From positions 599,536-663,535 of the forward strand of contig JAHPZH010000001.1 in assembly GCA_019058315.1 (NCBI GenBank): a DNA stretch of 64,000 nucleotides. Direction: 5' to 3'. The notes beneath the pieces are model-generated. The model was not told where the DNA came from. It saw nothing but the letters and a program-made list of their open reading frames with translations, and searched no databases. This stretch comes from Candidatus Helarchaeota archaeon. GTDB taxonomy: Archaea; Asgardarchaeota; Lokiarchaeia; Helarchaeales; RDOG01. Positions 1,339 through 32,248 of this stretch are shown here, in pieces; position 1 is the first letter of the stretch, and every line of letters starts with the position of its first letter. Position numbers and translations under genes: made by a program.

Positions 1339-2402
1339 TTTTGATTGTTCTTAAAAGTATCATAAAGCATCTTTGCTATTGAGATGGATGGAGCGACTAA
1401 TGCTCCTTTACCACCAATAAGAGAATCAAAATCAATAACATTTTTATATCCTAATTCTTCAGCAGCTTTCCTCGCTAAAAAATCTTTCCCAAGACCAGTA
1501 ACAACAATAGGAAAATCCAGATCTTGTATAGCTTCATTATTATTCGTAACTTGTAACAATCCCTCTTTAATCTGTTCTAATTGTTTTCCGTAAATCTCTT
1601 TTGCGATATTTTGAATCTCTTCTTTTGAAAACATTTCAATATCAGCACAAACAATTCGTGCTAATCTTGCATAGGAGTTTTCTGAATCATTGTCTCTACC
1701 ATCTGCTGTATCGCAATTATATTCATTTCTTGTAATATTTCCTAAAATTAAATGAACATCTGCAGCAAGTGCAAATTTTTCAAAAGAGATTCTGCAAGGT
1801 TTACTTTTAATCTCGACTGTTCTAACAATTGATGGTATTGTTGCTCGTAATGAACCCGTATATACTAATTCACCAGCGATTAATCTGTCAAGATCAGTCT
1901 TACTTTCTGTAGCAATTTGTCCCTCAATAATTGGTATAATATCAGTTGTTGTACTACCAATATCTATCAATATACAATTGGAAACGTATTGACCTACTAA
2001 ATAACAAGTTGCAACCCAATTTGAAGCCGCAACAGATAAAGGTGCATTAATAGCTTGAGATATCGAAATAAAATTTCCATCAACAGTTAATACATGGCAT
2101 TTTTTTTCTGAAAATACTTTTTTAAATGAATTTAGGATATGGTTAACACCTTCACGCTTAGTATAAAAAGCATCTGATAACTCAGCAGTCATTGTTATTG
2201 CTATTAAATCAGGCTTGGCTAAAACCATAGTAGAATAAATACTTGATAATATTTCTGGTAATTTTTGACGCTCTTTTAACCACATAGGATAAAATTTTGA
2301 TTGAACTTTAAAACTTTCTATTTTTTCATTTTCTATCTCAACTAATGCTGCTTTAATATTTACTCCGCCAACATCCCAGCCAATAATTTTCAAATTATTC
2401 AC
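1335..2402 (-). CDS. mfnF: Hydantoinase-A-like methanofuran biosynthesis protein MfnF
   Basis: GWDVGGVNIKAA, TMTAELSDAF, AASNW, DIGSTTTDIIPI, TADGR motifs. Confidence 0.85.
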   Translation of the reverse strand: MNNLKIIGWDVGGVNIKAALVEIENEKIESFKVQSKFYPMWLKERQKLPEILSSIYSTMVLAKPDLIAITMTAELSDAFYTKREGVNHILNSFKKVFSEKKCHVLTVDGNFISISQAINAPLSVAASNWVATCYLVGQYVSNCILIDIGSTTTDIIPIIEGQIATESKTDLDRLIAGELVYTGSLRATIPSIVRTVEIKSKPCRISFEKFALAADVHLILGNITRNEYNCDTADGRDNDSENSYARLARIVCADIEMFSKEEIQNIAKEIYGKQLEQIKEGLLQVTNNNEAIQDLDFPIVVTGLGKDFLARKAAEELGYKNVIDFDSLIGGKGALVAPSISIAKMLYDTFKNNQK

Positions 2403-3619
2403 TCACCAAAAAATAATTTATTTCTTATATTTTCAAATTGCTTTTTTGAATCTTTTAAGGTTTCTTGATGAGAACAAATAAAAGCTGAAGTTTTTTCATT
2501 CTCTCTTCCTCTAACCACAAATGGTGGAGCAACTATACCCTCTTTAAAATACTTTTCTTTAAAATCGTCTAATGATAAATTAGGAATAATTAGATCTATT
2601 TTAGAAAAATGAGAATAGCCAAGGAACTCAAATTTTGATAGCCGTTCCTCCTTAAAAATAAATAAATCTATTATCGCATTTGTTATATTTTGATTAGAAA
2701 CTGATTTTATACCCACATAAGATGTTGTTAATCGTGGGTTAATTTCCATAAAATATGCTTTTTCAGGAGTTAGGACAAAATCTATACCGATATATCCTTT
2801 TAGACCTTTTATCTTCTTTATTATTTCTTTAGATTGAGTAACAACTTCTTTTTTTAAAGGATGATTAAATGGCGTATAGCCACCTAGATAGGTTGAACTT
2901 TGAAGATCAATATTTTGGTAATTTAAAGTTAAAGGAATTATCTGATTTTCACCAATTAAAAGACTTATACTTGCATCAACTCCTTCAATAAACTCCTGAA
3001 TTATGAATTTATTTGCTGCTGACTCTTTTCTAATCTTTTCCAAAGCTTGGGGAACCTGAACTTCGCGTTGAATTACGGAAATTCCAGCACAAGCTACCCC
3101 ATCTAATGGTTTCATTACAAAGGGTAATCCTATTTCTTTTGATGCTTGAAAAACATCTTCTGAGGGTAAATCAATTGACATTAATTCTGTTTTTGGAATT
3201 TCTGCTATATTTTCTATCCTCTTAATCGTTTGATATTTATCAGTTGTTATTTTTATTGAGGATGCTGATGGTCCTAATAATAGAATCTTTTTATGTTCGA
3301 CAATTTTTGCTAGATTATATAAGATATTATCAGTCTCAGGAGCAATTAAAAAAACTGCATCAATGGAATTAGATAAGATTTTATTAAATTTGACATTAAA
3401 ATTATCTTTGTGCGAAATTTCAATAATAATGTCTGCATTAATGGGGGGATTATATGTTTTTATTCGATAATCGAGAGTTGAGATTATTTTATGCTCAGTT
3501 TTATTAAAATCTGCTAAAATGGAACTGAGCATAGCATACCCCTCACTAAGTATTGAATTAGATACAGGTTGTGTGGCACTGCCACCTCCTGAAAAAAATT
3601 CAAAAACAAAAATACGCAT
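2399..3619 (-). CDS. mfnD: ATP-grasp ligase, likely tyramine-L-glutamate ligase MfnD
   Basis: FEFFSGGG N-terminus, EGYAML, IAPE, KPLDG, EINPRLTTSYVG; gene context. Confidence 0.8.
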   Translation of the reverse strand: MRIFVFEFFSGGGSATQPVSNSILSEGYAMLSSILADFNKTEHKIISTLDYRIKTYNPPINADIIIEISHKDNFNVKFNKILSNSIDAVFLIAPETDNILYNLAKIVEHKKILLLGPSASSIKITTDKYQTIKRIENIAEIPKTELMSIDLPSEDVFQASKEIGLPFVMKPLDGVACAGISVIQREVQVPQALEKIRKESAANKFIIQEFIEGVDASISLLIGENQIIPLTLNYQNIDLQSSTYLGGYTPFNHPLKKEVVTQSKEIIKKIKGLKGYIGIDFVLTPEKAYFMEINPRLTTSYVGIKSVSNQNITNAIIDLFIFKEERLSKFEFLGYSHFSKIDLIIPNLSLDDFKEKYFKEGIVAPPFVVRGRENEKTSAFICSHQETLKDSKKQFENIRNKLFFGE

Positions 3620-21300: not shown

Positions 21301-23123
21301 TTGGTTATATGACTATTTGGGGGACAGGGGCTATCTCAATAGATAATAGCACAATTAATGACATATATACAGCTCAATCTTTAACTTCCTCACCAGTTGG
21401 CAATATTTTAATTACGAACTCAACTATCTCATGGGCATCTATTTCTGGGGAATTTATAGCGACCTTTATAAATTGTATAATTAATTCTTTGGTAGAAGGC
21501 ATTGTTGTTTATGATGGTACTGTTATAATAGATTCAACTGGGATAAGTGGGTCAGGAAGTTATACAAATTATACTCAAATCATTTCAAGTACAGTTTTTT
21601 CAAGGTCTTTAATGTTGATCGAAGTAAATAATACTGCTAATGTAATTATTAATGAAGGTTGGTATGGTAATATATATTTAATGCATGATGCAAGTGCCAC
21701 TCTAACTAATGCAAACATAGCAGGAATAGCTTTGTTCAATAATTCCAATGCTTTCATCCATAATTCTACTATAAACGGAACTTTGTTTGGGTTAATGAGT
21801 CTTGGGAGTTCTTATTTTTCAATTGATCAAAATTCCACTTTAAGTATGATGTTTTGTACGGCATCAAGTAATGGGACAATGACTAACTCTACGGTTCTTT
21901 CAAGATTAATCTTAGCCAATTCCGCAACATTGACCATTCTAAAATCTACAATCTTGGGAGTCGCTAAAATTATGGGGTCAAATTCAATTGATTATTCTCT
22001 TAAAATGTATAATTCATCAATTGATGTACTTGAGGGAATTATCTGGGATTATTTATTATTTTATGTAACTATTAAACCTTCAATAATATTAAATAGTCCA
22101 CAAAATCAAACTGTAATAAAAAAACCAGCATATATTGATCTTAAGATTTCAGATGATGATCTAGACCCCTCGACTGTGGAATGGATAGCAAACGTAACAC
22201 AACTTACTTGGACGAATTCTTTTATTGGGTCTTATGATATTGATCTATCTAGTTTTGCCAGTGACCAGACGGTGCAATTCTGGGTTAGAGCGAATGATAC
22301 TTTAGATAATCAGAATCTAATAACTTTTATTTTGACTTTTGATGATATTCCTCCAACTAAACCATCGAATCTAACAGCAATTATTCAAAAAGGCAATATT
22401 ACTATCTCTTGGAATTCATCTTCAGATTTTAATGCTATTTATTATCATATTTGGAGACATAGTAAAAGAGTTAGTAAATATTTAGGAAATACTACATCCA
22501 ATTTTTATATAGATCTCGAGAGTTTAAAACCAGGAAAATATACTTACGAGATAATTCCATTTGATGAAGCAAATAATACAGGAGAATCTATAAACATTAC
22601 TGTAAAAATACGAGGAAGAGATATATATTATCCATTTTTAGAACCCCCTAAAGATAATATAACCTTTATTATTTTCGTGATTATAGGATCTATAGCTGTA
22701 ACCACAAGCGTAGCAATTGTATATAGGAAATACAAAGGTTCAGAAAAAAAGCCTAAAAAAATAGGTAAGGAGACAGGACCAAAACGGAAAAAAAGAAAGA
22801 AATGGAAAGGTAAAATGGCTTTCAAAGTGGATTATATTGGAATCAGTGATCTTTCTGTAGAACTAAAGCTTAGAAATCTCACTAAATCCCCAATTCCTCT
22901 AGATTCCATTGAAGATGAAAATATTAGGGAATTTTATAGTCAAGAATTCAACATTTTATCTGTAGATGAAATAAATAGAATTTTAAAAATGCAAATTCCA
23001 GATATTTCTGATAAAATAGAAATATTGGATGAATTAGCTCGTTTATCTCCAGAAGAACGAAAAGATTTGATTGAATCTCTTGAAAAACTTAATCGATCAA
23101 GACTTAATAGTGAATTTCAATAA
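15330..23123 (+). CDS. Giant surface protein: two 7-repeat beta-propellers, ConA-like domain, WD40-like propeller, beta-helix, FN3-like domain, TM, cytoplasmic tail
   Basis: 7+7 repeats of VSTEST..S..P.IAVD..GNVHVxW.D..DYGGSGTD.DIFYK; W.Y...V.SVAIS.DG.YIAAGS repeats; NSTI repeats; signal peptide and C-terminal TM. Confidence 0.8.
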   Translation: MKKDKFVNLILAYFLIIFIFLPVIHSPSSNFLPLWSKITITNEIPKHKLELETSALGWPMTEVVSTESTGNSYHPSIAVDGTGNVHVAWEDWTDYGGSGTDNDIFYKCWNATTGTWKTIEVVSTESMGDSYSPTIAADGFGNVHVAWYDLSDYGGSGTDWDIFYKRWNATTGTWSGFINTTDVISTESTDLSRKPSLAVDSSGNVHVAWEDCTDYGGSGTDNDIFYKCWNTSTSSWTTTVLISTESTGNSYNPSIAVDGSENVHVAWYDLTDYGGSGTDKDIFYKRWNATGIWSGFINTTDIVSTESSNDSWLLAIAVDGSGNVYVAWCDLTDYGGSGTDPDIFYKCWNTTTGIWNTTEVVSTESTGISFHPTIAVDGSGNVHVAWMDYTDYEGAGTDRDIFYKRRNAITGIWSGYVNASDVVSTESTGQFYNSSPTIAVDTTGNVHVAWDDSTNYGGSGTDHDIFYKHQINIANNYSDDFNSGTLDPKWIWHDGGEGESWNLTVNPGNLRIISTSKINAWWGNNGDNIIYMPYIYQNFSNIQYFEIITKVNPPDGNGKGNGIVLYEDDNNYIVLNNYRDSVGNILYAQYRSVGDPLTNIGVIRTTVNYFKLMRIGNLISYQYSNDGSSWNILANYTHNYNFIRMGIFCSSVGGGIFNSDFDFFNFTELAPSMPPPDPNTKTPLWKYDTGSSIYSVAITPNGQYIAVGTGNSLHFWDINSSTPLWSYYVGDVVQAVDMSEDGNYIVAGTGVLDQPGNVVLWQRSSSTPIWNYTGSGNFGSIAISADGNYIVAGDRLSNNLHLWHRDNSTPLWSFNPGSGNWESVAISSDGYYIVASDGFYHDYVYYFDRTSSTPMWNYQCGSDVWSVDISKDGQYYAAGSKDHKIYFWQNNSDTPVWDYSTSGEVFSVSISNDGSHIAAGSVDNNLYYFKTDNSTPQWSYTTGDDICSERTVSISGDGEYIAAGTKDSKIYFFYRNDSTPIWNFTTITGSIGAIDLSDTGQYLVAGGQDHYVYVFSQDNEMPPTSNHPLDIITTVSGTETINWTLYDDSGPGQYRIWVNDTNNNYYIWIDWTPWINNTNLIVPINRSTVGVFNYTIEYNNSNGTFGIPDIVIVKIEISVFNWTMTEVISTESTEDSSQPAIAVDNLGNVHVVWNDWTDYGGSDMDCDVFYKRWNAITSNWTLTEVVSTESTLDVWNLSIVADSSGNLHVVWSDWTDYGGSGTDNDIFYKFWNATSGTWSGYINATDVVSTESTGSSRDPAIAVDGSGNVHVVWTEWSNGDIFYKFWNSTSKTWNGNINATDVVSTEGTGQSWYPSIDVDGSGNVHVVWEDSSDYGDSGTDDDIFYKFWNVTSRIWSGNINTTDIVSTESTGGSWYPSIAVDSSGNVHVVWSDWTDYGGAGLKNDIFYKFWNVTSGTWGGNFNATDVVSTESTESSYSPSIFVDSFNNLHVVWEDHTDYGMSGTDNDIFYKLRNAPSGIWSGTVNITDIISTESTGSSWNPSIVVDGSGNIHVTWDDMTNYNGSGIDRDIFYKKKTITELPSPPTSNHPADIITPLSGTDTINWTLYDDFGPGQYRVWVNDTNNNYYIWVDWTIWTNNTNLAIPINRTAIGVFNYTIEYNNSIGLFGIPDTVLVFINLPAQSNSIIYGLNSSIGYNYHAIRIDLGDIIVENTLNLTPGKLNGTPVINSTILENSNVIYESFLDNINLFGNAKLTMRNIFETGLNIYLFNNSELILENCTLNSITACDTSKVWIKNTTINYIYDYINWSFPIIFDPSPDSSTIYVLQKSTISQVHLSGGSNFVVENSTIDWMTMQSLANIISGISRISLQATITNSTLNYLRLYRDSKATVFSSQLITAYVYDIAKLSLVASTITNLYYGIICNSGFTSIVDGVPSGGYINNTQLIGTSPSGSFELISVAVTGSASAYIEGWLTTTSFDLYLYDSSLAQLNYTFDANLICSYNNSQLDIENSIITTIMAYLNSSVTIQKNCSIGYMTIWGTGAISIDNSTINDIYTAQSLTSSPVGNILITNSTISWASISGEFIATFINCIINSLVEGIVVYDGTVIIDSTGISGSGSYTNYTQIISSTVFSRSLMLIEVNNTANVIINEGWYGNIYLMHDASATLTNANIAGIALFNNSNAFIHNSTINGTLFGLMSLGSSYFSIDQNSTLSMMFCTASSNGTMTNSTVLSRLILANSATLTILKSTILGVAKIMGSNSIDYSLKMYNSSIDVLEGIIWDYLLFYVTIKPSIILNSPQNQTVIKKPAYIDLKISDDDLDPSTVEWIANVTQLTWTNSFIGSYDIDLSSFASDQTVQFWVRANDTLDNQNLITFILTFDDIPPTKPSNLTAIIQKGNITISWNSSSDFNAIYYHIWRHSKRVSKYLGNTTSNFYIDLESLKPGKYTYEIIPFDEANNTGESINITVKIRGRDIYYPFLEPPKDNITFIIFVIIGSIAVTTSVAIVYRKYKGSEKKPKKIGKETGPKRKKRKKWKGKMAFKVDYIGISDLSVELKLRNLTKSPIPLDSIEDENIREFYSQEFNILSVDEINRILKMQIPDISDKIEILDELARLSPEERKDLIESLEKLNRSRLNSEFQ

Positions 23124-23130
23124 TTAAGAA

Positions 23131-23189
23131 TGGTGGATAGGGGAGGATTCGAACCTCCAACCGCTCGGTTAACAGCCGAGTCCTATACC
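23131..23189 (-). pseudogene. 3' fragment of tRNA-Asn (att-like direct repeat)
   Basis: 59 bp with 2 mismatches to 27969-28027; lacks the 5' acceptor strand. Confidence 0.9.
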
Positions 23190-27937: not shown

Positions 27938-27968
27938 GTAAAGCTAATAAAATAACAATAATTTAAAA

Positions 27969-28045
27969 TGGCGGATAGGGGAGGATTCGAACCTCCAACC
28001 GCTCGGTTAACAGCCGAGTGCTATACCTGATTAAGCCACCTACCC
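27969..28045 (-). tRNA. tRNA-Asn(GTT), CCA encoded
   Basis: Cloverleaf; CTCGG-CT-GTT-AA-CCGAG; G73. Confidence 0.95.
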
Positions 28046-28052
28046 ATTTTAA

Positions 28053-28127
28053 TGGGATGGAGATCGGGAATTGAACCCGAGTCTATTGAGCCACAATCAA
28101 TTATTCTACCATTAAACTATCTCCACC
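28053..28127 (-). tRNA. tRNA-His(GTG), G-1 and CCA encoded
   Basis: ATTGA-TT-GTG-GC-TCAAT; G-1:C73. Confidence 0.95.
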
Positions 28128-28133
28128 AAAATT

Positions 28134-28243
28134 TGGTGCGGATGGGGAGATTTGAACTCCCGTTTTTAGATTTCAGCAGTTTTTGGCGTTCTAGTCCAAA
28201 TAATTTGGAAGTCTAAATGTCTAAACCTCTAACGTACATCCGC
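28134..28243 (-). tRNA. tRNA-Gly(TCC) with intron carrying an alternative GCC anticodon
   Basis: TTAGA-CT-TCC-A, 34-nt intron (28172-28205), A-TCTAA; GCC cassette at 28185-28187. Confidence 0.9.
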
Positions 28244-28250
28244 AAAAAAA

Positions 28251-28613
28251 TTAGAGAATTAAGGCAGGCACTGTAATAAATTGCACTGGATTTCTCTTGT
28301 TATACTTTCTATGACATTCCCAACACCATGTAATATTGTTTGTTAATGTTTCAACTTTATAAGCTGAACCGTTACACTTTCCAATAATATGGTGTCGTGT
28401 CAAGTAATTGTTTGGGTCTAGTTTATTTTGTTTTACACCGCATTTCTGACAGGTAAATTTATCTCTATTGTAGATAAATAACCGGAGCTTTAGTTGAAAT
28501 CGCCCGCAGTGTGGACATTGAATGTAACCGATAACTTCTTTATTGAATTGTTTGCATTGTTTGTATTCTTTTTTCAGACCTTTTATTGTTTTTTTACAAT
28601 AAATACACTTAAA
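28251..28613 (-). pseudogene. HNH endonuclease frame with N-terminal Zn-ribbon; start codon missing
   Basis: 120 open codons: FKCIYCK...CPHCG...RDKFTCQKCG...LTRHHII...NNITWCWECHRKYN. GAGGTGA SD upstream, but an in-frame TGA precedes the frame. Confidence 0.8.
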
Positions 28614-28641
28614 TCACACATCACCTCTTTTTGTTTGTTGA

Positions 28642-28713
28642 TCCGACTGTGCGGATTTGAACCACAATATCACAGATCTACAGTCTGCTGCCGTACCAGT
28701 TGGCTACAGTCGG
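28642..28713 (-). tRNA. tRNA-Tyr(GTA)
   Basis: C1-G72, A73, short variable loop (archaeal type); GCAGA-CT-GTA-GA-TCTGT. Confidence 0.95.
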
Positions 28714-28793
28714 TATTTTAATAAAGATGGGTAGGGTCTAATTCAAAAAAAATAAAAGGGATTGATGGTAAGTCTAATTATATTAAGATATTT

Positions 28794-28910
28794 TTAATCA
28801 ACTTCCTTAGACATCGGACTTAATACAACCTCTACGACTTTTTCAACAACTTTCATTTCTTCTGCTTCTTTTTCCGTCAAATATGCATAATAACCCATAT
28901 ATTGTTGCAA
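28794..28910 (-). CDS. Putative 38-aa microprotein
   Basis: GGAGGTGA SD, then TTG: MQQYMGYYAYLTEKEAEEMKVVEKVVEVVLSPMSKEVD*. Confidence 0.45.
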   Translation of the reverse strand: MQQYMGYYAYLTEKEAEEMKVVEKVVEVVLSPMSKEVD

Positions 28911-28970
28911 AATTCTTCACCTCCAATTTTTTTTTAAGATAATTTCTAGCTTCAATTGGGTTTTGTAAAG

Positions 28971-29041
28971 TTGCACAGACAGGAATCGAACCTGCTTGCA
29001 ACTCGTTGTAAGCGAGTCAACGATCCAACCGTCCCTGTGCA
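28971..29041 (-). tRNA. Atypical tRNA-Val(TAC)-like gene
   Basis: 7-bp acceptor TGCACAG/CTGTGCA, canonical T arm, loop CT-TAC-AA; but G8, a 5-nt D loop and a 6-bp anticodon stem. Confidence 0.65.
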
Positions 29042-29046
29042 AATGA

Positions 29047-29121
29047 TGGAATCGGTGGGATTTGAACCCACATAAACTTGATCTTCAGTCAAGCGGACTC
29101 GCCGGATTATCCTACGATTCC
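29047..29121 (-). tRNA. tRNA-Phe(GAA)
   Basis: CTTGA-CT-GAA-GA-TCAAG. Confidence 0.95.
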
Positions 29122-29123
29122 AA

Positions 29124-29209
29124 TGGTGGGGTTACTAGGATTTGAACCTAGATCACCAGATTTCTCCACATTTGGAGTCTGGAAGTCTCCCGGATTAACG
29201 TATAACCCC
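29124..29209 (-). tRNA. tRNA-Trp(CCA) with 10-nt intron at 37/38
   Basis: CCAGA-CT-CCA-A-[ATGTGGAGAA]-A-TCTGG; CTCC/GGAG helix. Confidence 0.92.
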
Positions 29210-29211
29210 AT

Positions 29212-29327
29212 TGGTACTCCCGCTCGGGTTCGAACCGAGGTCAATGGGTTTCTCCCATATTCAGATTATGTTTGATCTGAATCAGACCAAAGCCCATCAT
29301 GCTTGGCCAAAGCTACACCACGGGAGT
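29212..29327 (-). tRNA. tRNA-Gln(TTG) with intron carrying an alternative CTG anticodon
   Basis: A1-U72; 37-nt intron 29250-29286; T-CTG-A cassette at 29261-29265. Confidence 0.92.
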
Positions 29328-29331
29328 ATTA

Positions 29332-29482
29332 TGGCGGTAGGGGAGAGATTTGAACTCTCGCTCCCCGTGGGGAAGTAGATTTCTGGTAAAGTGAAATCTC
29401 AACTCGAGGGTAGGCTACTAAGCCGTTCCATTCTCACTGCTTCAATAGCAGTCTACCGTCGTAACCACTTGACTACCCTACC
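29332..29482 (-). tRNA. tRNA-Ser(GCT) with intron carrying CGA, GGA and TGA anticodons
   Basis: Long variable arm, G73; 65-nt intron 29381-29445. Confidence 0.92.
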
Positions 29483-29490
29483 GCTGATTG

Positions 29491-29607
29491 TGGCGGACTT
29501 GGGGAGATTTGAACTCCCAATCTACGGGTTTCTCCACGATTAAGTTCGGGTTACCCCAAAGCTTGAGATAAAAGCCCGTTGCCGTAACCTGGTTTGGCCA
29601 CAAGTCC
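29491..29607 (-). tRNA. tRNA-Lys(TTT) with intron carrying an alternative CTT anticodon
   Basis: 39-nt intron 29530-29568; CTT at 29542-29544 preceded by CCCG-AA. Confidence 0.92.
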
Positions 29608-29611
29608 GCTT

Positions 29612-29824
29612 TGGCGGGATTGCGGGGAATTGAACCCCGACCTTATGATTTCTGTACTACGGTCGCTTTCCTCCTTTTTCAAAGTCTTATTCTAAACCCT
29701 GCCATGGATAAGTCAACTGAACCCCTATTAAGGAAATTTAATCATTTTTGAGGTGAAATTAATAATTATCAAAAAGGGGCCGTAGTTAGACAGTCATAAA
29801 TCATAGCCATTAGACCACAATCCC
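29612..29824 (-). tRNA. tRNA-Asp(GTC) with 138-nt intron
   Basis: Strict BHB (CTGT/ACAG helix, ACTACGG/CCGTAGT outer stem); intron 29650-29787; G73, CCA. Confidence 0.88.
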
Positions 29825-29882
29825 ATTATTCCTCTTCGACTTCAGCCCTAATCTTAAATTAAAAAATGGGGATAATTTGTTA

Positions 29883-29929
29883 GGGGGCAATAATTAGACA
29901 GTCATTAATAACTATTGAACCACAATCCC
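29883..29929 (-). pseudogene. Degenerate copy of the tRNA-Asp 5' half plus intron start
   Basis: GGGATTGTGGTTCAATAGTTATTAATGACTGTCTAATTATTGCCCCC versus GGGATTGTGGTCTAATGGCTATGATTTATGACTGTCTAACTACGGCCCC. Confidence 0.75.
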
Positions 29930-29963
29930 CGTAAGATGTTGTTGGCTGAGTATACAACTATCT

Positions 29964-30028
29964 GGCTTCAGTACGAGAGGAACAATTTCACATTGTTTGT
30001 TTCTGACAAGAGGAACTTCATCATAGCC
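29964..30028 (-). ncRNA. Box C/D guide sRNA complementary to the 23S sarcin-ricin loop
   Basis: GGCT-ATGATGA-AGTTCCTCTTGT-CAGA-...ATGTGA...-GTTCCTCTCGTA-CTGA-AGCC: terminal stem, perfect C and D boxes, both guides antisense to (U)ACGAGAGGAAC. Confidence 0.85.
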
Positions 30029-30158
30029 TTGGGAATTATAGTTTGGATAACGACTTATATCCAAGCCCCTGCTATTTCGTTCTCTCATTTTCATTACCAA
30101 TTGCTACACCTCTTACTTTAATTGATTGTATACAATAGATTGTTTTCATCTGATAAAC

Positions 30159-30195
30159 TAATGATAGTGGCAGTAGGATTTGAACCTACAATCTT
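30159..30195 (-). pseudogene. 3' fragment of initiator tRNA-Met (direct repeat)
   Basis: 37 bp with 1 mismatch to 31002-31038. Confidence 0.9.
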
Positions 30196-30214
30196 ACAGG
30201 CTATTTGCAAAGAA

Positions 30215-30874
30215 TTAGATATTCTCTATTATGTATTTGGTCATTCCTTTTAAGATATATAACTCCTTTGTACTATCAATTCTCAATTTGCATACCCCAT
30301 TATAACTTCTACCGATTCCTCTAGAGCCATGCTTTTTTATGTAAGGTTTTGTAAACTGATTCTTTGGAATATTAAGTATTATTGACCAATAAGAAATCAT
30401 TTTTTCAATTTCATGATAAGAATGTAGATGAAGATGAATCTTAATAGAATTTTTATCGATTTTAAGAACATCTAAAAGAAATCTAAGAAAAATTTCAATT
30501 AATTTTGGGTCGGAATTACTAAATTCTATTCTATGATCACTAGATGTAGTCCCTTCGCTCTGATATAATGTTGTTCCTATTATCATTAGGTCTGACCAAT
30601 TTTCTTTTGCAATTTTCTGCCCTTCCTTATAATATAGTTTTCTTCGTTGTTTTGCTAGTTCCTTCATTTTGTGATGCCCTTTTTCTAGAATAGATTGAGA
30701 TTTCTTCTTCAGTCTATCTTTTTGTTCATTTGTTAAAATTATATCTCTTGTCCAGTTCGCAACTGTTCCCTTCGGTATTCCCATTTGTGAAGATATTTCT
30801 CCAAAAGAATACCCCTTTTTACGCAACCTCCTAGCTTTTCTCTTAATTTTTTCTTTATAACTTCTATACTTCAA
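30215..30874 (-). CDS. HTH plus LAGLIDADG-like (homing-endonuclease-fold) protein
   Basis: N-terminal HTH (LRKKGYSFGEISSQMGIPKGTVANW); GTTLYQSEG followed by IEFSNSDPKLIEIFLRFL. Confidence 0.7.
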   Translation of the reverse strand: MKYRSYKEKIKRKARRLRKKGYSFGEISSQMGIPKGTVANWTRDIILTNEQKDRLKKKSQSILEKGHHKMKELAKQRRKLYYKEGQKIAKENWSDLMIIGTTLYQSEGTTSSDHRIEFSNSDPKLIEIFLRFLLDVLKIDKNSIKIHLHLHSYHEIEKMISYWSIILNIPKNQFTKPYIKKHGSRGIGRSYNGVCKLRIDSTKELYILKGMTKYIIENI

Positions 30875-31007
30875 TGAACATCACTCTTATATCTCCATAG
30901 CCCAATAATGGCAGTTCAATTGTTTTGTTTCATATTCATATATAAACTCAACAAATTCTCCTGACTATCAAGTGAAATTTTCGTAGAGACGGGAAATTCA
31001 ATAATGA

Positions 31008-31101
31008 TAGTGGCAGTAGGATTCGAACCTACAATCTTTGGGTATCTCAATAGATTATTATTTATGAGCCCAACGAGATCTCCTGATTACTCCATGCCAC
31101 T
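31008..31101 (-). tRNA. Initiator tRNA-Met(CAT) with 19-nt intron
   Basis: A1-U72, three G-C pairs closing the anticodon stem; intron 31044-31062 with CTCA/TGAG helix. Confidence 0.92.
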
Positions 31102-31102
31102 A

Positions 31103-31241
31103 TGGTAGAGAGGAGGGGGATCGAACCCCTGCTCTTCAGTTGTCTAAAATTGTTTTGTTACAAAGACAACCATATAAGATTCGTCTTTGTATGACATTAC
31201 ATCATATCAGACTGACGCCTGAACCACTCGGCTACCTCTCT
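31103..31241 (-). tRNA. tRNA-Ile(GAT) with 63-nt intron
   Basis: TCAGT-CT-GAT-A, intron 31142-31204, A-ACTGA. Confidence 0.9.
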
Positions 31242-31243
31242 AT

Positions 31244-31351
31244 TGGTGCTGACCGGGGGAATCGAACCCCCGTCAACGGATGTCTTCATGTAAATTCGAG
31301 ATTGCGTTTCAATCGAAAGTCCGCTATACTTGTCCGCTATACTAGGCCAGC
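31244..31351 (-). tRNA. tRNA-Glu(TTC) with intron carrying an alternative CTC anticodon
   Basis: 32-nt intron 31282-31313; T-CTC-G at 31297-31301. Confidence 0.92.
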
Positions 31352-31355
31352 ACGG

Positions 31356-31492
31356 TGGAGGGCTAGGAGGGATTTGAACCCTCAACATCTCACTATCTCT
31401 GGCTAACTTACGCTACAGATACATTCCGCATAAGGAAGAGCATGTCTTCTGCATACTAGGCGAGCGCTCTAGACCATTGGAGCTACTAACCC
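31356..31492 (-). tRNA. tRNA-Thr: AGT in place, TGT after removing a 33/34 intron
   Basis: U73, CCA; BHB TCGC/GCGG-AA|TGT-A defines introns 31424-31457 and 31395-31419. Confidence 0.8.
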
Positions 31493-31578
31493 TATTTTTC
31501 CAATGCAAATGGTTCTTAAACCATACTATTTTTTAAAACTTCTTTTCATCAACTCCGTTTTTTTTATTTTAAATATGT

Positions 31579-31656
31579 TGGTGGACTCGCCGAGCTTCGA
31601 TCTCGGAGCCTCCTACTTGCAAAACAGGCGTTCTACCATTTTCGAACTACGAGTCC
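31579..31656 (-). tRNA. tRNA-Ala(TGC), atypical (A3-U70, A54)
   Basis: CCTGT-TT-TGC-AA-GTAGG; acceptor GGACTCG/CGAGTCC; T loop ATCGAAG. Confidence 0.85.
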
Positions 31657-31665
31657 ATTTTTCTA

Positions 31666-31738
31666 TGGGCAAGAGAGGATTCGAACCTCTGTGGGTTGGT
31701 CTGCATCCAACTGCATGACCTAATTCTGCCACTTACCC
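31666..31738 (-). tRNA. Atypical second tRNA-Cys(GCA)
   Basis: GTTGG-AT-GCA-GA-CCAAC; A32, A73, no encoded CCA. Confidence 0.7.
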
Positions 31739-31762
31739 ACTATTAAACAAATGTAATTTTGA

Positions 31763-31839
31763 TGGAGGATAAGACAGGATTTGAACCTGTGTGAAATTGG
31801 GTTGCAGCCAATCGCCTACGCCAACTCAGCCACTTATCC
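31763..31839 (-). tRNA. tRNA-Cys(GCA)
   Basis: ATTGG-CT-GCA-AC-CCAAT; U73, CCA. Confidence 0.95.
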
Positions 31840-31843
31840 TTAA

Positions 31844-32020
31844 TGGTGCAGGAGGAGGGATTTGAACCCTCGGTCTCAAGATTTCTTCTAGTATTAGGAT
31901 TCTGTTCGGATTCCGTTATTCGAATACTGTACTATTCGCATTCTGTTATTAGAATTCCAGATCGATGAGGATAACCTCAAAAAATTGTCTTGTAGTTTAT
32001 CCATACTAGCGTACTCCTGC
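31844..32020 (-). tRNA. tRNA-Arg with five tandem anticodon cassettes (TCT, GCG, TCG, CCG, CCT)
   Basis: A20 in D loop; stem CAAGA/TCTTG; on the + strand the insert reads Arg codons AGG 31896, CGG 31907, CGA 31921, CGC 31937 and AGA 31951, each in a tt-NNN-at context. Confidence 0.88.
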
Positions 32021-32021
32021 A

Positions 32022-32100
32022 TGGTGGGATCGGCAAGATTTGAACTTGCGATTGCTTGATCCCAAATCAAGAGTCCTAAACCATACTAGACCACGATCCC
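32022..32100 (-). tRNA. tRNA-Pro(TGG)
   Basis: CTTGA-TT-TGG-GA-TCAAG; CCA. Confidence 0.95.
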
Positions 32101-32110
32101 CAGTATAAAG

Positions 32111-32248
32111 TGGAAGGAAGGGGTTTCGAACCCCTGAACTCCTACGAGATTAGATTTCTCACAGACCTTGAGTGTCGTTCTTAGTATCGTTCTTGACCGA
32201 TAATAAATATCTTAAGTCTAACGCCTTTGACCACTTGGCTATCCTTCC
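32111..32248 (-). tRNA. tRNA-Leu(TAA) with 55-nt intron containing CAA/TAA repeats
   Basis: Long variable arm, A73; intron 32156-32210. Confidence 0.9.

Follow-up and report, generated by a model that had tools for sequence, protein, structure and literature searches.

A 64,000-nucleotide stretch (the window) of the genome of a Candidatus Helarchaeota archaeon, a member of the Asgard archaea, the closest known relatives of eukaryotes, carries a compact array of 21 tRNA genes for all 20 amino acids. We judge it rather probable that this array is supernumerary, with one gene per amino acid, belongs to a small Asgard order and sits on a variable island, and that some of its genes give more than one isoacceptor. 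The window corresponds to C3:599536-663535 of a 5.79-Mb genome bin in 12 contigs (G000, about 30% G+C, 94% complete).

A dense array of tRNA genes for 20 amino acids

The array occupies positions 27969-32248 on the minus strand, as established by Rfam alignments, reading of the sequence and a scan of our own. Within this interval the Rfam model RF00005 recognised 17 tRNAs at or above its gathering score, all on the minus strand; a whole-genome search gave tRNA-Val as an 18th gene at 35 bits, so that the 18 genes score between 35 and 69 bits. ARAGORN, with introns allowed, returned 18-19 of the array tRNAs and found the Asp gene with a wrong anticodon. Our scan, which looks for a T-arm followed by an acceptor strand and then seeks the complement of the latter upstream, recovered all the array genes found by Rfam and ARAGORN and added Gln, Asp and Arg.

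Read 5' to 3' along the minus strand, the genes are Leu UAA, Pro UGG, Arg (with five cassettes), Cys GCA, a second GCA tRNA with A73, Ala UGC, Thr AGU, Glu UUC, Ile GAU and an initiator-like Met CAU; then, after the protein gene ORF219, Asp GUC, Lys UUU, Ser GCU, Gln UUG, Trp CCA, Phe GAA, Val UAC and Tyr GUA; and, after an HNH-type gene, Gly UCC, His GUG and Asn GUU.

32108..32248, minus strand: tRNA-Leu(UAA), type II, 55-nt intron, CCA not encoded; Rfam 47.9 bits
32022..32100, minus strand: tRNA-Pro(UGG), intronless, CCA encoded; Rfam 63.7 bits
31844..32020, minus strand: tRNA-Arg gene, no valid default anticodon; acceptor-stem and T-arm scan
31763..31839, minus strand: tRNA-Cys(GCA), U73, CCA encoded; Rfam 57.3 bits
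31666..31738, minus strand: second GCA tRNA, paralog of the Cys gene, A73, A32, without CCA; Rfam 54.2 bits
31579..31656, minus strand: tRNA-Ala(UGC); Rfam 51.6 bits
31356..31492, minus strand: tRNA-Thr(AGU), 59-nt intron with UGU and CGU; Rfam 43.4 bits
31244..31351, minus strand: tRNA-Glu(UUC), 32-nt intron with U-CUC-G; Rfam 47.8 bits
31103..31241, minus strand: tRNA-Ile(GAU), 63-nt intron with the block TCTTATAT (UAU); Rfam 53.5 bits
31005..31101, minus strand: initiator-type tRNA-Met(CAU), A1:U72, G29-31:C39-41, 19-nt intron, TCA end; Rfam 53.7 bits
29612..29824, minus strand: tRNA-Asp(GUC), 138-nt intron, CCA encoded; acceptor-stem and T-arm scan
29491..29607, minus strand: tRNA-Lys(UUU), 39-nt intron with CUU behind a second strict splice motif; Rfam 53.2 bits
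29332..29482, minus strand: tRNA-Ser(GCU), type II, 65-nt intron with UGA, GGA and CGA; Rfam 45.3 bits
29212..29327, minus strand: tRNA-Gln(UUG), A1:U72, 37-nt intron with U-CUG-AA; scan
29124..29209, minus strand: tRNA-Trp(CCA), 10-nt intron, central helix 4/4; Rfam 49.4 bits
29044..29121, minus strand: tRNA-Phe(GAA), TCA end; Rfam 65.2 bits
28971..29041, minus strand: tRNA-Val(UAC), U1:A72, odd D-arm, without CCA; Rfam 35.4 bits
28639..28713, minus strand: tRNA-Tyr(GUA), C1:G72, TCA end; Rfam 56.3 bits
28134..28243, minus strand: tRNA-Gly(UCC), 34-nt intron with GCC; Rfam 47.9 bits
28053..28126, minus strand: tRNA-His(GUG), encoded G-1, C73; Rfam 65.5 bits
27969..28045, minus strand: tRNA-Asn(GUU), the final array gene; Rfam 68.7 bits

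With 21 genes in 4.28 kb, the array reaches 4.9 genes per kb. Introns interrupt 12 of the 21 genes, and the encoded 3' ends are CCA in 15, TCA in three (Met, Phe, Tyr) and neither in three (Leu, the second GCA tRNA, Val). In every gene the acceptor stem is fully paired (7/7), as is the T-stem (5/5), and a canonical bulge-helix-bulge (BHB) motif with a 4/4 central helix in the 37/38 register is present in 8 of 11 introns, including those of Leu and Asp. The only Met tRNA is of the initiator type, with A1:U72 and three G:C pairs (GGG/CCC) at the base of the anticodon stem, and resembles the dispersed initiator gene of the host (C5:113829-114010). Acceptor stems contain 3-5 G:C pairs of 7, compared with 4-7, mostly 5-6, in dispersed genes. 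By their predicted structures, the array genes are real tRNAs. A reading of the sequence alone had announced 21 co-oriented genes for 20 amino acids, 12 of them with introns, 15 with CCA and three with TCA, and all these counts proved exact; its remarks on the missing elongator Met and on AT-rich, divergent tRNA bodies also hold.

The array duplicates a dispersed tRNA set

ARAGORN and Rfam detect only about 20 tRNAs outside the array. Using intron-tolerant scans (acceptor stem plus T-arm; acceptor stem plus CCA), we found about 45 dispersed tRNA genes, which have GC-rich acceptor stems and nearly always encode CCA. In many of them an intron interrupts the D-arm, variable region, T-loop or T-stem, which is why standard finders miss about half of the tRNAs of G000. 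Examples with introns in the T-loop or T-stem lie at C1:253283-253385, C6:49760-49868, C6:72427-72529 and C10:130012-130116, among others.

The dispersed set comprises initiator Met, Ile (GAU, UAU), Arg (UCU, UCG, CCG, CCU), Leu (UAA, CAA, UAG, CAG, GAG), Gln (UUG, CUG), Ala (UGC, CGC, GGC, all with G3:U70), three each of Val, Pro and Gly, four Ser, two Thr, two Lys, Glu, Phe, Tyr, Asp, Asn, His, two Cys and selenocysteine, the last a UCA-type tRNA at C5:127141-127232. Dispersed genes for Trp and elongator Met were not found in G000 with the intron-tolerant scans; every other amino acid is covered. As these two are also undetected in the array-less relative G001, we take their absence as a limit of detection. 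The possibility that the array is the only tRNA source of the genome is ruled out by the approximately 45 dispersed genes, the low count obtained at an early stage being an artefact of detection. We conclude that the array is a redundant second tRNA set. The accessory status proposed by the sequence-only reading is thus borne out by the whole-genome inventory, which yields GC-rich dispersed copies for all amino acids but Trp and elongator Met.

Cognate anticodons inside the introns

The introns contain further triplets that correspond to anticodons of the same amino acid. In the context U-NNN-R (R, purine) we counted 19 such cognate triplets, against 5.6 ± 2.3 in shuffled introns, with none of 2,000 shuffles reaching 19; rotating the amino-acid sets between genes left only 2-10. 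Comparison with two related arrays, in genomes G003 and G006 (described below), revealed that 53 of 72 cassette columns are invariant across genomes, versus 203 of 419 in other intron sequence. The conserved intron anticodons are Lys CUU, Gln CUG, Glu CUC, Gly GCC, Ile UAU, Ser GGA/CGA/UGA and Leu CAA/AAG. Those of Gln, Glu and Gly are conserved in three genomes and the Ile block is invariant across G000, G003 and G006; in G003, all three Ser triplets are conserved and an 11-nt block of the Lys intron that includes CTT is invariant. In the Leu intron, CAA and AAG lie in a context like that of an anticodon loop, and both blocks are conserved in G003 and G006.

The Arg gene (174 nt; acceptor stem GCAGGAG/CTCCTGC) lacks a valid anticodon after position 32. 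Its anticodon stem, CAAGA/TCTTG, encloses about 106 nt with five tandem U-NNN-AA units: UCU, GCG, UCG, CCG and CCU. These are the complete set of Arg anticodons used in archaea. All five units are invariant in G003 and G006, and the spacers between them carry indels. Judging by these comparisons, the cognate cassettes of the introns are under selection.

Strict BHB motifs that yield valid 7-nt loops, with a central helix of 4/4, an outer helix of 2 bp and an inner helix of 3-9 bp, were found for Lys CUU, Ser CGA and Thr UGU, and in each case the anticodon would be swapped. The Lys motif, at 33/34, combines a 4/4 central helix with outer and inner helices of 2 and 9 bp, and the new loop would be CTCTTAA; the Ser CGA motif has a 4/4 central helix with outer and inner helices of 2 and 8, and its loop would be CTCGAGT; and the Thr motif, also at 33/34, would yield the loop CTTGTAT. 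The predicted cuts join the hidden cassette to C32 of the first exon in Ser, or to C32-U33 in Lys and Thr. By a rough estimate, far fewer than one strict BHB would be expected by chance. Because the Lys, Ser and Thr cassettes stand behind strict splice motifs, some genes probably yield more than one isoacceptor. In the Arg gene, enumeration of strict BHBs gave no route to a 7-nt loop. A helix of UUUG with CAGA or CGGA recurs there and places the 3' cut exactly at U33/N34 in the GCG, CCG and CCU units; its paired 5' cut follows 'GAG' instead of position 32 or 33.

One possible mechanism is that the splicing endonuclease cuts one transcript at alternative BHB motifs, so that a single tRNA body could receive several cognate anticodons. 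The Arg gene would then yield five, Ser four, Leu and Thr three apiece, and Lys, Gln, Glu, Gly and Ile two apiece. We know of no described case in which alternative splicing changes the anticodon of a tRNA. The idea that one tRNA gene could give several isoacceptors is directly testable on a few short transcripts.

A34 occurs in the array Thr gene (AGU), and the Leu intron contains AAG. A34 tRNAs are rare in archaea. G000 also encodes a candidate TadA/MafB19-type deaminase (156 aa, 69.8 bits, C6:156704-157102). As a candidate A34-editing enzyme it settles nothing, since the family is also present in archaea without such editing.

Array tRNAs evolve rapidly and resemble those of the host

Dispersed Lys genes are 91-100% identical between genomes, compared with 53-76% for array orthologs, and the rate of evolution of array tRNAs is about three to four times that of the dispersed ones. 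Among the Pro orthologs of the three arrays, which share 57-75% identity, 10 of 19 base pairs have changed on both sides with pairing kept. Pairing retained through compensatory changes at such low identity argues for purifying selection on structure with fast turnover of sequence. A single lineage that maintains two tRNA sets at very different rates constitutes a natural experiment on the constraints acting on tRNA sequences.

The discriminator bases of the array tRNAs match those of host isoacceptors, and the identity elements of the lineage are kept: G-1 and C73 in His, C1:G72 in Tyr, U73 in Cys and Thr, and A1:U72 in Gln and the initiator. The unusual T-loop of the array Ala gene (ATCGAAG) is that of the host Ala genes, and the D-loop of the array Arg gene matches the host Arg genes. 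The array His gene is 84% identical to the dispersed His gene of the host and 53-57% identical to the His genes of other arrays; overall, array tRNAs are no closer to other arrays than to the host's own tRNAs. The host-like His gene, Ala T-loop, Arg D-loop and identity elements thus suggest that the set arose within the lineage and still exchanges with, or recruits from, host genes. The default anticodons fit the dominant A/U-ending codons (TTA 49%, AGA 50%, GAA 81%, AAA 81%, CAA 84%).

Some members depart from this pattern. In the array Ala gene A3:U70 replaces the identity pair G3:U70 that is expected of a functional tRNA-Ala; the G003 ortholog, at L013:9387-9475, is likewise A3:U70, and G3:U70 is kept in the G006 array and in all host Ala genes. 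The second GCA tRNA is 72% identical to the array Cys gene and its charging identity is doubtful. The odd D-arm of tRNA-Val recurs in the arrays of both relatives, G003 and G006. A case for relaxed selection on certain members can be made from Ala A3:U70, from A73 in the second GCA tRNA, and from U1:A72 with the odd D-arm in Val.

The array lies on a variable island and recurs in two relatives

In G001, a genome of the same family (94% complete), the gene for isopentenyl-phosphate kinase (IPK) directly adjoins the homolog of window 2399-3619. As the flanking genes abut in G001, G000 has about 30 kb of additional sequence here, the array among it. This G000-only segment (window 3620-34394) contains several paralogous giant surface-protein genes with HVO_0163-type winged helix-turn-helix partners, the array, a membrane protein and UbiX. 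From this comparison of gene order, the array lies on a variable chromosomal island. No tRNA cluster was detected in the fragmented bins G001, G002 and G005.

Related arrays were found in G003 and G006, two genomes from another family of the same order. At least 19 genes are readable in the G003 array, which spans contigs C53 and C5, linked by a Thr gene that is divided between their ends; in G006 the arrays lie on contigs C270 and C405. The three arrays have in common the peculiar Arg gene, an identical Lys acceptor stem and the conserved intron blocks, and the array of G003 shares the order Tyr-HNH-Gly, all of which points to a shared origin. Gene order is otherwise shuffled and the neighbours differ, being ordinary genes in both relatives: TrmI, TtuA-like, GNAT, TPR and TrmB genes in G003, and trpB, trpA and enoyl-CoA hydratase in G006.

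The Arg-cassette pattern matched 7 of 161 genomes of the class, with tandem cassettes only in G000, G003 and G006; the four other matches were judged to be due to chance. About 393 other Asgard genomes lack the array markers. A metagenome scan returned a single contig, which repeats the G003 array, and a search of the genome collection returned only G003 and G006. The record with the G003 array, DATKTP010000053.1, bears the title of a bacterial bin (Candidatus Deferrimicrobium sp.), and this label or the binning looks wrong: G003 is placed in the archaeal order of G000, and its array contig bears intron-containing tRNAs of archaeal type.

Synteny in relatives does not indicate vertical conservation, given that G001 lacks the array and that its contexts in G003 and G006 differ. 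From its distribution and gene neighbourhoods, the array is accessory and relocating. The sequence-only reading would have given up an accessory origin had the array tRNAs been the only copies and vertically conserved; they are neither.

Endonuclease-type genes, tRNA fragments and repeats

Two protein genes of endonuclease type, a short open reading frame (ORF) and two tRNA fragments lie between the array genes.

30215..30874, minus strand: ORF219, N-terminal helix-turn-helix (HTH) and a single LAGLIDADG-type domain; HTH_23 at weak E-values
30159..30207, minus strand: orphan tRNA-Met 3' end (T-arm and acceptor strand), 97% identical to 31002-31038; repeat family D3
29884..29936, minus strand: orphan tRNA-Asp 5' half, upstream of the Asp gene; repeat family D8 and sequence reading
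28794..28910, minus strand: 38-codon ORF between the Val and Tyr genes, preceded by a strong GGAGGTGA ribosome-binding motif
28251..28613, minus strand: HNH-type endonuclease gene, open frame of 120 codons; translation, Pfam HNH E-value 5.9e-4

The HNH-type gene scores 20.4 bits against PF01844, for which the cut-off is 21.4, and its ortholog in G003 scores 19.9 bits; the translation of the G000 gene shows CxxC, HH, N and CxxCH residues. The ortholog (L013:9580-9951) is 48% identical and also lies between Tyr and Gly in its array, and the gene occurs in 2 of 400 genomes of the phylum (G000 and G003). In both, the frame starts immediately after a TGA, with no ATG, GTG or TTG near the start, and continues unbroken for about 120 codons; its translation might involve an unusual start, read-through or an mRNA intron.

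The C-terminal part of ORF219 was modelled with a pLDDT of 86 and aligned by VIA-align with TliVMA, I-DmoI, PI-PfuI, I-Vdi141I and I-Tsp061I (Z 7.5 to 5.1); over residues 86-219, Z ranges from 7.5 to 4.8 against eight LAGLIDADG enzymes or relatives, below the level that is decisive alone. A Foldseek search against the PDB gave nothing significant, and a sequence search of the PDB nothing useful. The motif G..LY..EG (G100, L103, Y104, E107, G108) is invariant in four homologs, and ORF219 thus has a conserved motif that ends in the catalytic acidic residue. We conclude from the model and this motif that ORF219 is probably a homing endonuclease. The sequence-only reading had noted interspersed HNH and LAGLIDADG-like genes: the LAGLIDADG-like fold of ORF219 finds partial support, and the HNH match falls just under the Pfam cut-off (E-value 6e-4).

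ORF219 has the tRNA-Met gene on one side and a duplicated 3' end of tRNA-Met on the other, and a bacterial homolog, 34% identical, lies 26 nt upstream of a tRNA-Met(CAT) gene (metagenome contig, L085:4001-4778). This HTH-LAGLIDADG family seems to travel with tRNA-Met genes, which it may target in both domains. The orphan Met and Asp halves suggest repeated recombination at tRNA sequences. In addition, a 77-nt direct repeat (D7, 92% identical) at 23113-23189 and 27951-28027 consists of the 3' 56 nt of tRNA-Asn and about 20 nt of flank; its copies bracket 4.8 kb that hold only the gene of a 1575-aa surface protein (fn3, Ig-like). On its sequence, this arrangement looks like the attL/attR scar of an integration whose integrase was lost.

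A box C/D RNA gene that matches the sarcin-ricin loop

Another gene in the array resembles those of archaeal box C/D small RNAs (sRNAs).

29964..30028, minus strand: box C/D sRNA-like gene, 65 nt, between the Met and Asp fragments; sequence and 23S match

It has the boxes, guides of about 12 nt and terminal stem expected of archaeal box C/D sRNAs: a stem GGCT/AGCC, a C box ATGATGA, a 12-nt guide, a D' box CAGA, a 14-nt guide and a D box CTGA; the C' box, TGTGAAA, is weak and degenerate. The two guides can both pair with the sarcin-ricin loop of G000's own 23S rRNA (C5, minus strand, 1297937); 14 of 14 positions pair, one as G:U. In our own reading of the N+5 rule, the predicted targets are the equivalents of A2660 and G2661, which we take to be the adenine on which ricin-type enzymes act and the guanosine that provides the 2'-OH required by sarcin-type enzymes for cleavage. 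If active, such a guide RNA would point to protection of the most toxin-sensitive site of the ribosome.

When 160 other genomes of the class were searched with a pattern made of the C box plus guide, no counterpart emerged: the pattern gave 27 matches against about 36 for a reversed control, and none of the 11 loci inspected was a C/D RNA with a second guide. The gene is absent from the array contigs of G003 and G006. A literature search found no paper linking C/D guides to the sarcin-ricin loop.

Weighing the explanations

The array, in the reading that we favour, would be transcribed as a few polycistronic units, and the precursors would be cut by RNase P and RNase Z and spliced by the BHB endonuclease and a ligase. 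Host synthetases would charge the products, which would add to the tRNA pool, perhaps conditionally, like the inducible L-arrays of bacteria. The HNH and HTH-LAGLIDADG genes, selfish genes of homing-endonuclease type, together with the repeats of tRNA fragments mark the array as a site of recombination, which is probably why its position differs between genomes. A broader version is tentative, and we hold it to be somewhat short of an even chance: the 21 genes would form a self-contained decoding set of about 40 isoacceptors through alternative BHB splicing and, with the sarcin-ricin guide, a portable translation module.

Several points weigh against the favoured reading. In the Arg, Leu, Glu, Ile, Gln and Gly genes of G000 we found no strict BHB in the right register. 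The relatives are all fragmented genome bins, in which failure to detect an array is weak evidence of its absence. Trp and elongator Met have no dispersed gene that we could find, and the array is possibly their only source. Fast evolution, with 57-75% identity between arrays and 91-100% among dispersed Lys genes, also fits relaxed constraint. Some members look impaired (Ala with A3:U70, the second GCA tRNA with A73, Val at 35 bits, Arg without a default anticodon), and the expression, splicing and charging of the array are all predictions.

The array could instead be a translation-protection kit, in which spare tRNAs would replace those cleaved by toxins (anticodon nucleases, VapC-type and sarcin-type RNases) and cleavage at the ricin and sarcin sites of the sarcin-ricin loop would be blocked by 2'-O-methylation guided by the box C/D RNA. 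This widens an idea of the sequence-only reading, which saw a possible backup translation kit against anticodon nucleases, and it appears unlikely to us. Coverage of all 20 amino acids, redundant with the host set, speaks for it, as do acceptor and other stems that differ strongly from those of the host and a dual-guide RNA that matches the host's own loop and has no counterpart by pattern in the class; phage tRNAs are documented to act against tRNA-cleaving defences (PMC10264068, PMC11555353). However, where phage tRNAs escape nucleases, altered loops are responsible (PMC10264068), and the array anticodon loops that were compared are identical to those of the host (Lys CTTTTAA, Asn CTGTTAA, His TTGTGGC). 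Evasion of nucleases is therefore not favoured, and the sarcin-ricin guide favours only the wider version of translation protection. That guide is moreover missing from both related arrays, methylation of the loop is only predicted, no toxin or defence gene was linked to the locus, and the array Ala tRNA with A3:U70 is probably not chargeable.

The sequence-only reading also saw a resemblance to mobile or viral tRNA arrays, and the array might be the remnant of a virus or plasmid whose insertion at a tRNA gene was followed by loss of the integrase and of the structural genes. The tRNA-Asn repeat is att-like, orphan Met and Asp halves lie inside the array, HNH and LAGLIDADG-type genes also occur in phage tRNA regions, G001 lacks the surrounding island of about 30 kb, and haloarchaeal tRNA clusters are associated with plasmids (PMC6333295). 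Yet, among the ORFs scanned in window 1-38879, there is no integrase, transposase, capsid or terminase family, in agreement with the earlier remark that the window has no integrase or capsid gene; no integrase, capsid or terminase Pfam family was found on the array contigs of G003 and G006 either. IMG/VR contains no match to the Arg-gene pattern and none to ORF219, and its 10 relatives of the HNH gene are weak (32-39% identity over the longer matches) and have no tRNAs nearby. The segment bracketed by the repeat holds nothing but a surface-protein gene, housekeeping genes flank the arrays of G003 and G006, and the tRNAs resemble those of the host lineage. A viral or mobile origin is accordingly not borne out, and we regard it as quite improbable. 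Least probable in our view is a decaying duplicate set without current function, left by neutral tandem duplications of host tRNA genes and drifting towards AT. Evolution three to four times faster than that of dispersed genes, the loss of identity elements from Ala and the second GCA tRNA, the three genes without CCA and three with TCA ends, and the gene fragments inside the array would suit such decay, and many pseudogenes occur in published archaeal clusters (PMC6333295). Against it, every stem has been kept by compensatory changes, different families of the order share conserved intron blocks and cassettes, and two genomes retain intact HNH frames that are 48% identical; G000 keeps a gene for every one of the 20 amino acids, and at least 19 genes are readable in G003.

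Comparison with known tRNA arrays and split tRNAs

At 21 genes and 4.9 genes per kb, the G000 array exceeds the thresholds of at least 20 genes and at least 2 per kb that define bacterial tRNA array units (Tran et al. 2016, PMC4758250), and it is supernumerary beside a housekeeping set, as are the inducible L-arrays (Santamaria-Gomez et al. 2021, PMC8421152). It also resembles bacterial arrays in covering nearly all amino acids, in its patchy occurrence and in lying outside conserved synteny. L-arrays spread horizontally between distant hosts and are normally silent, being induced by translational stress (PMC8421152). Unlike bacterial arrays with their distant donors, the G000 array has tRNAs from the host lineage; these are of archaeal type with BHB introns, belong to an Asgard host and carry extra cognate anticodons in introns.

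In archaea, clusters of 12-23 tRNA genes were described from Halobacteria and Methanobacteria (Methanobrevibacter) by Morgado and Vicente (2019, PMC6333295). The G000 array shares with them dense genes of archaeal type, some degenerate, and hints of mobility. That survey, however, reported clusters in Euryarchaeota only, tied to plasmid genes (relaxase, TraD) and to a TROVE-domain gene, which are absent at the G000 array, and introns are rare in those clusters, compared with 12 of 21 genes here. Based on a literature search, including this archaeal survey, which reports none, the G000 array is the first of its kind that we could find in an Asgard-type archaeon.

Phage tRNA regions are likewise dense blocks with interspersed HNH or homing-endonuclease genes and tRNAs more AT-rich than those of their host. 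Large phages such as T4 and T5 have tRNA regions with free-standing homing endonuclease genes. The G000 array differs from these in the absence of viral genes among the ORFs scanned, in its host-like anticodon loops and in its chromosomal housekeeping context. Dense, complete arrays were thus known before from bacteria, phages and two euryarchaeal classes; the form with intron anticodons was not among them. Its closest likeness in this last respect is to the split and tri-split tRNAs reportedly described by Fujishima et al. in 2009 from Nanoarchaeum and Caldivirga, in which a shared body and different anticodon pieces give several isoacceptors through BHB cleavage and ligation, as predicted for G000. 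In contrast to split tRNAs, the pieces in G000 lie in cis within one gene, and the choice among them would be made by alternative splicing, not by the joining of transcripts.

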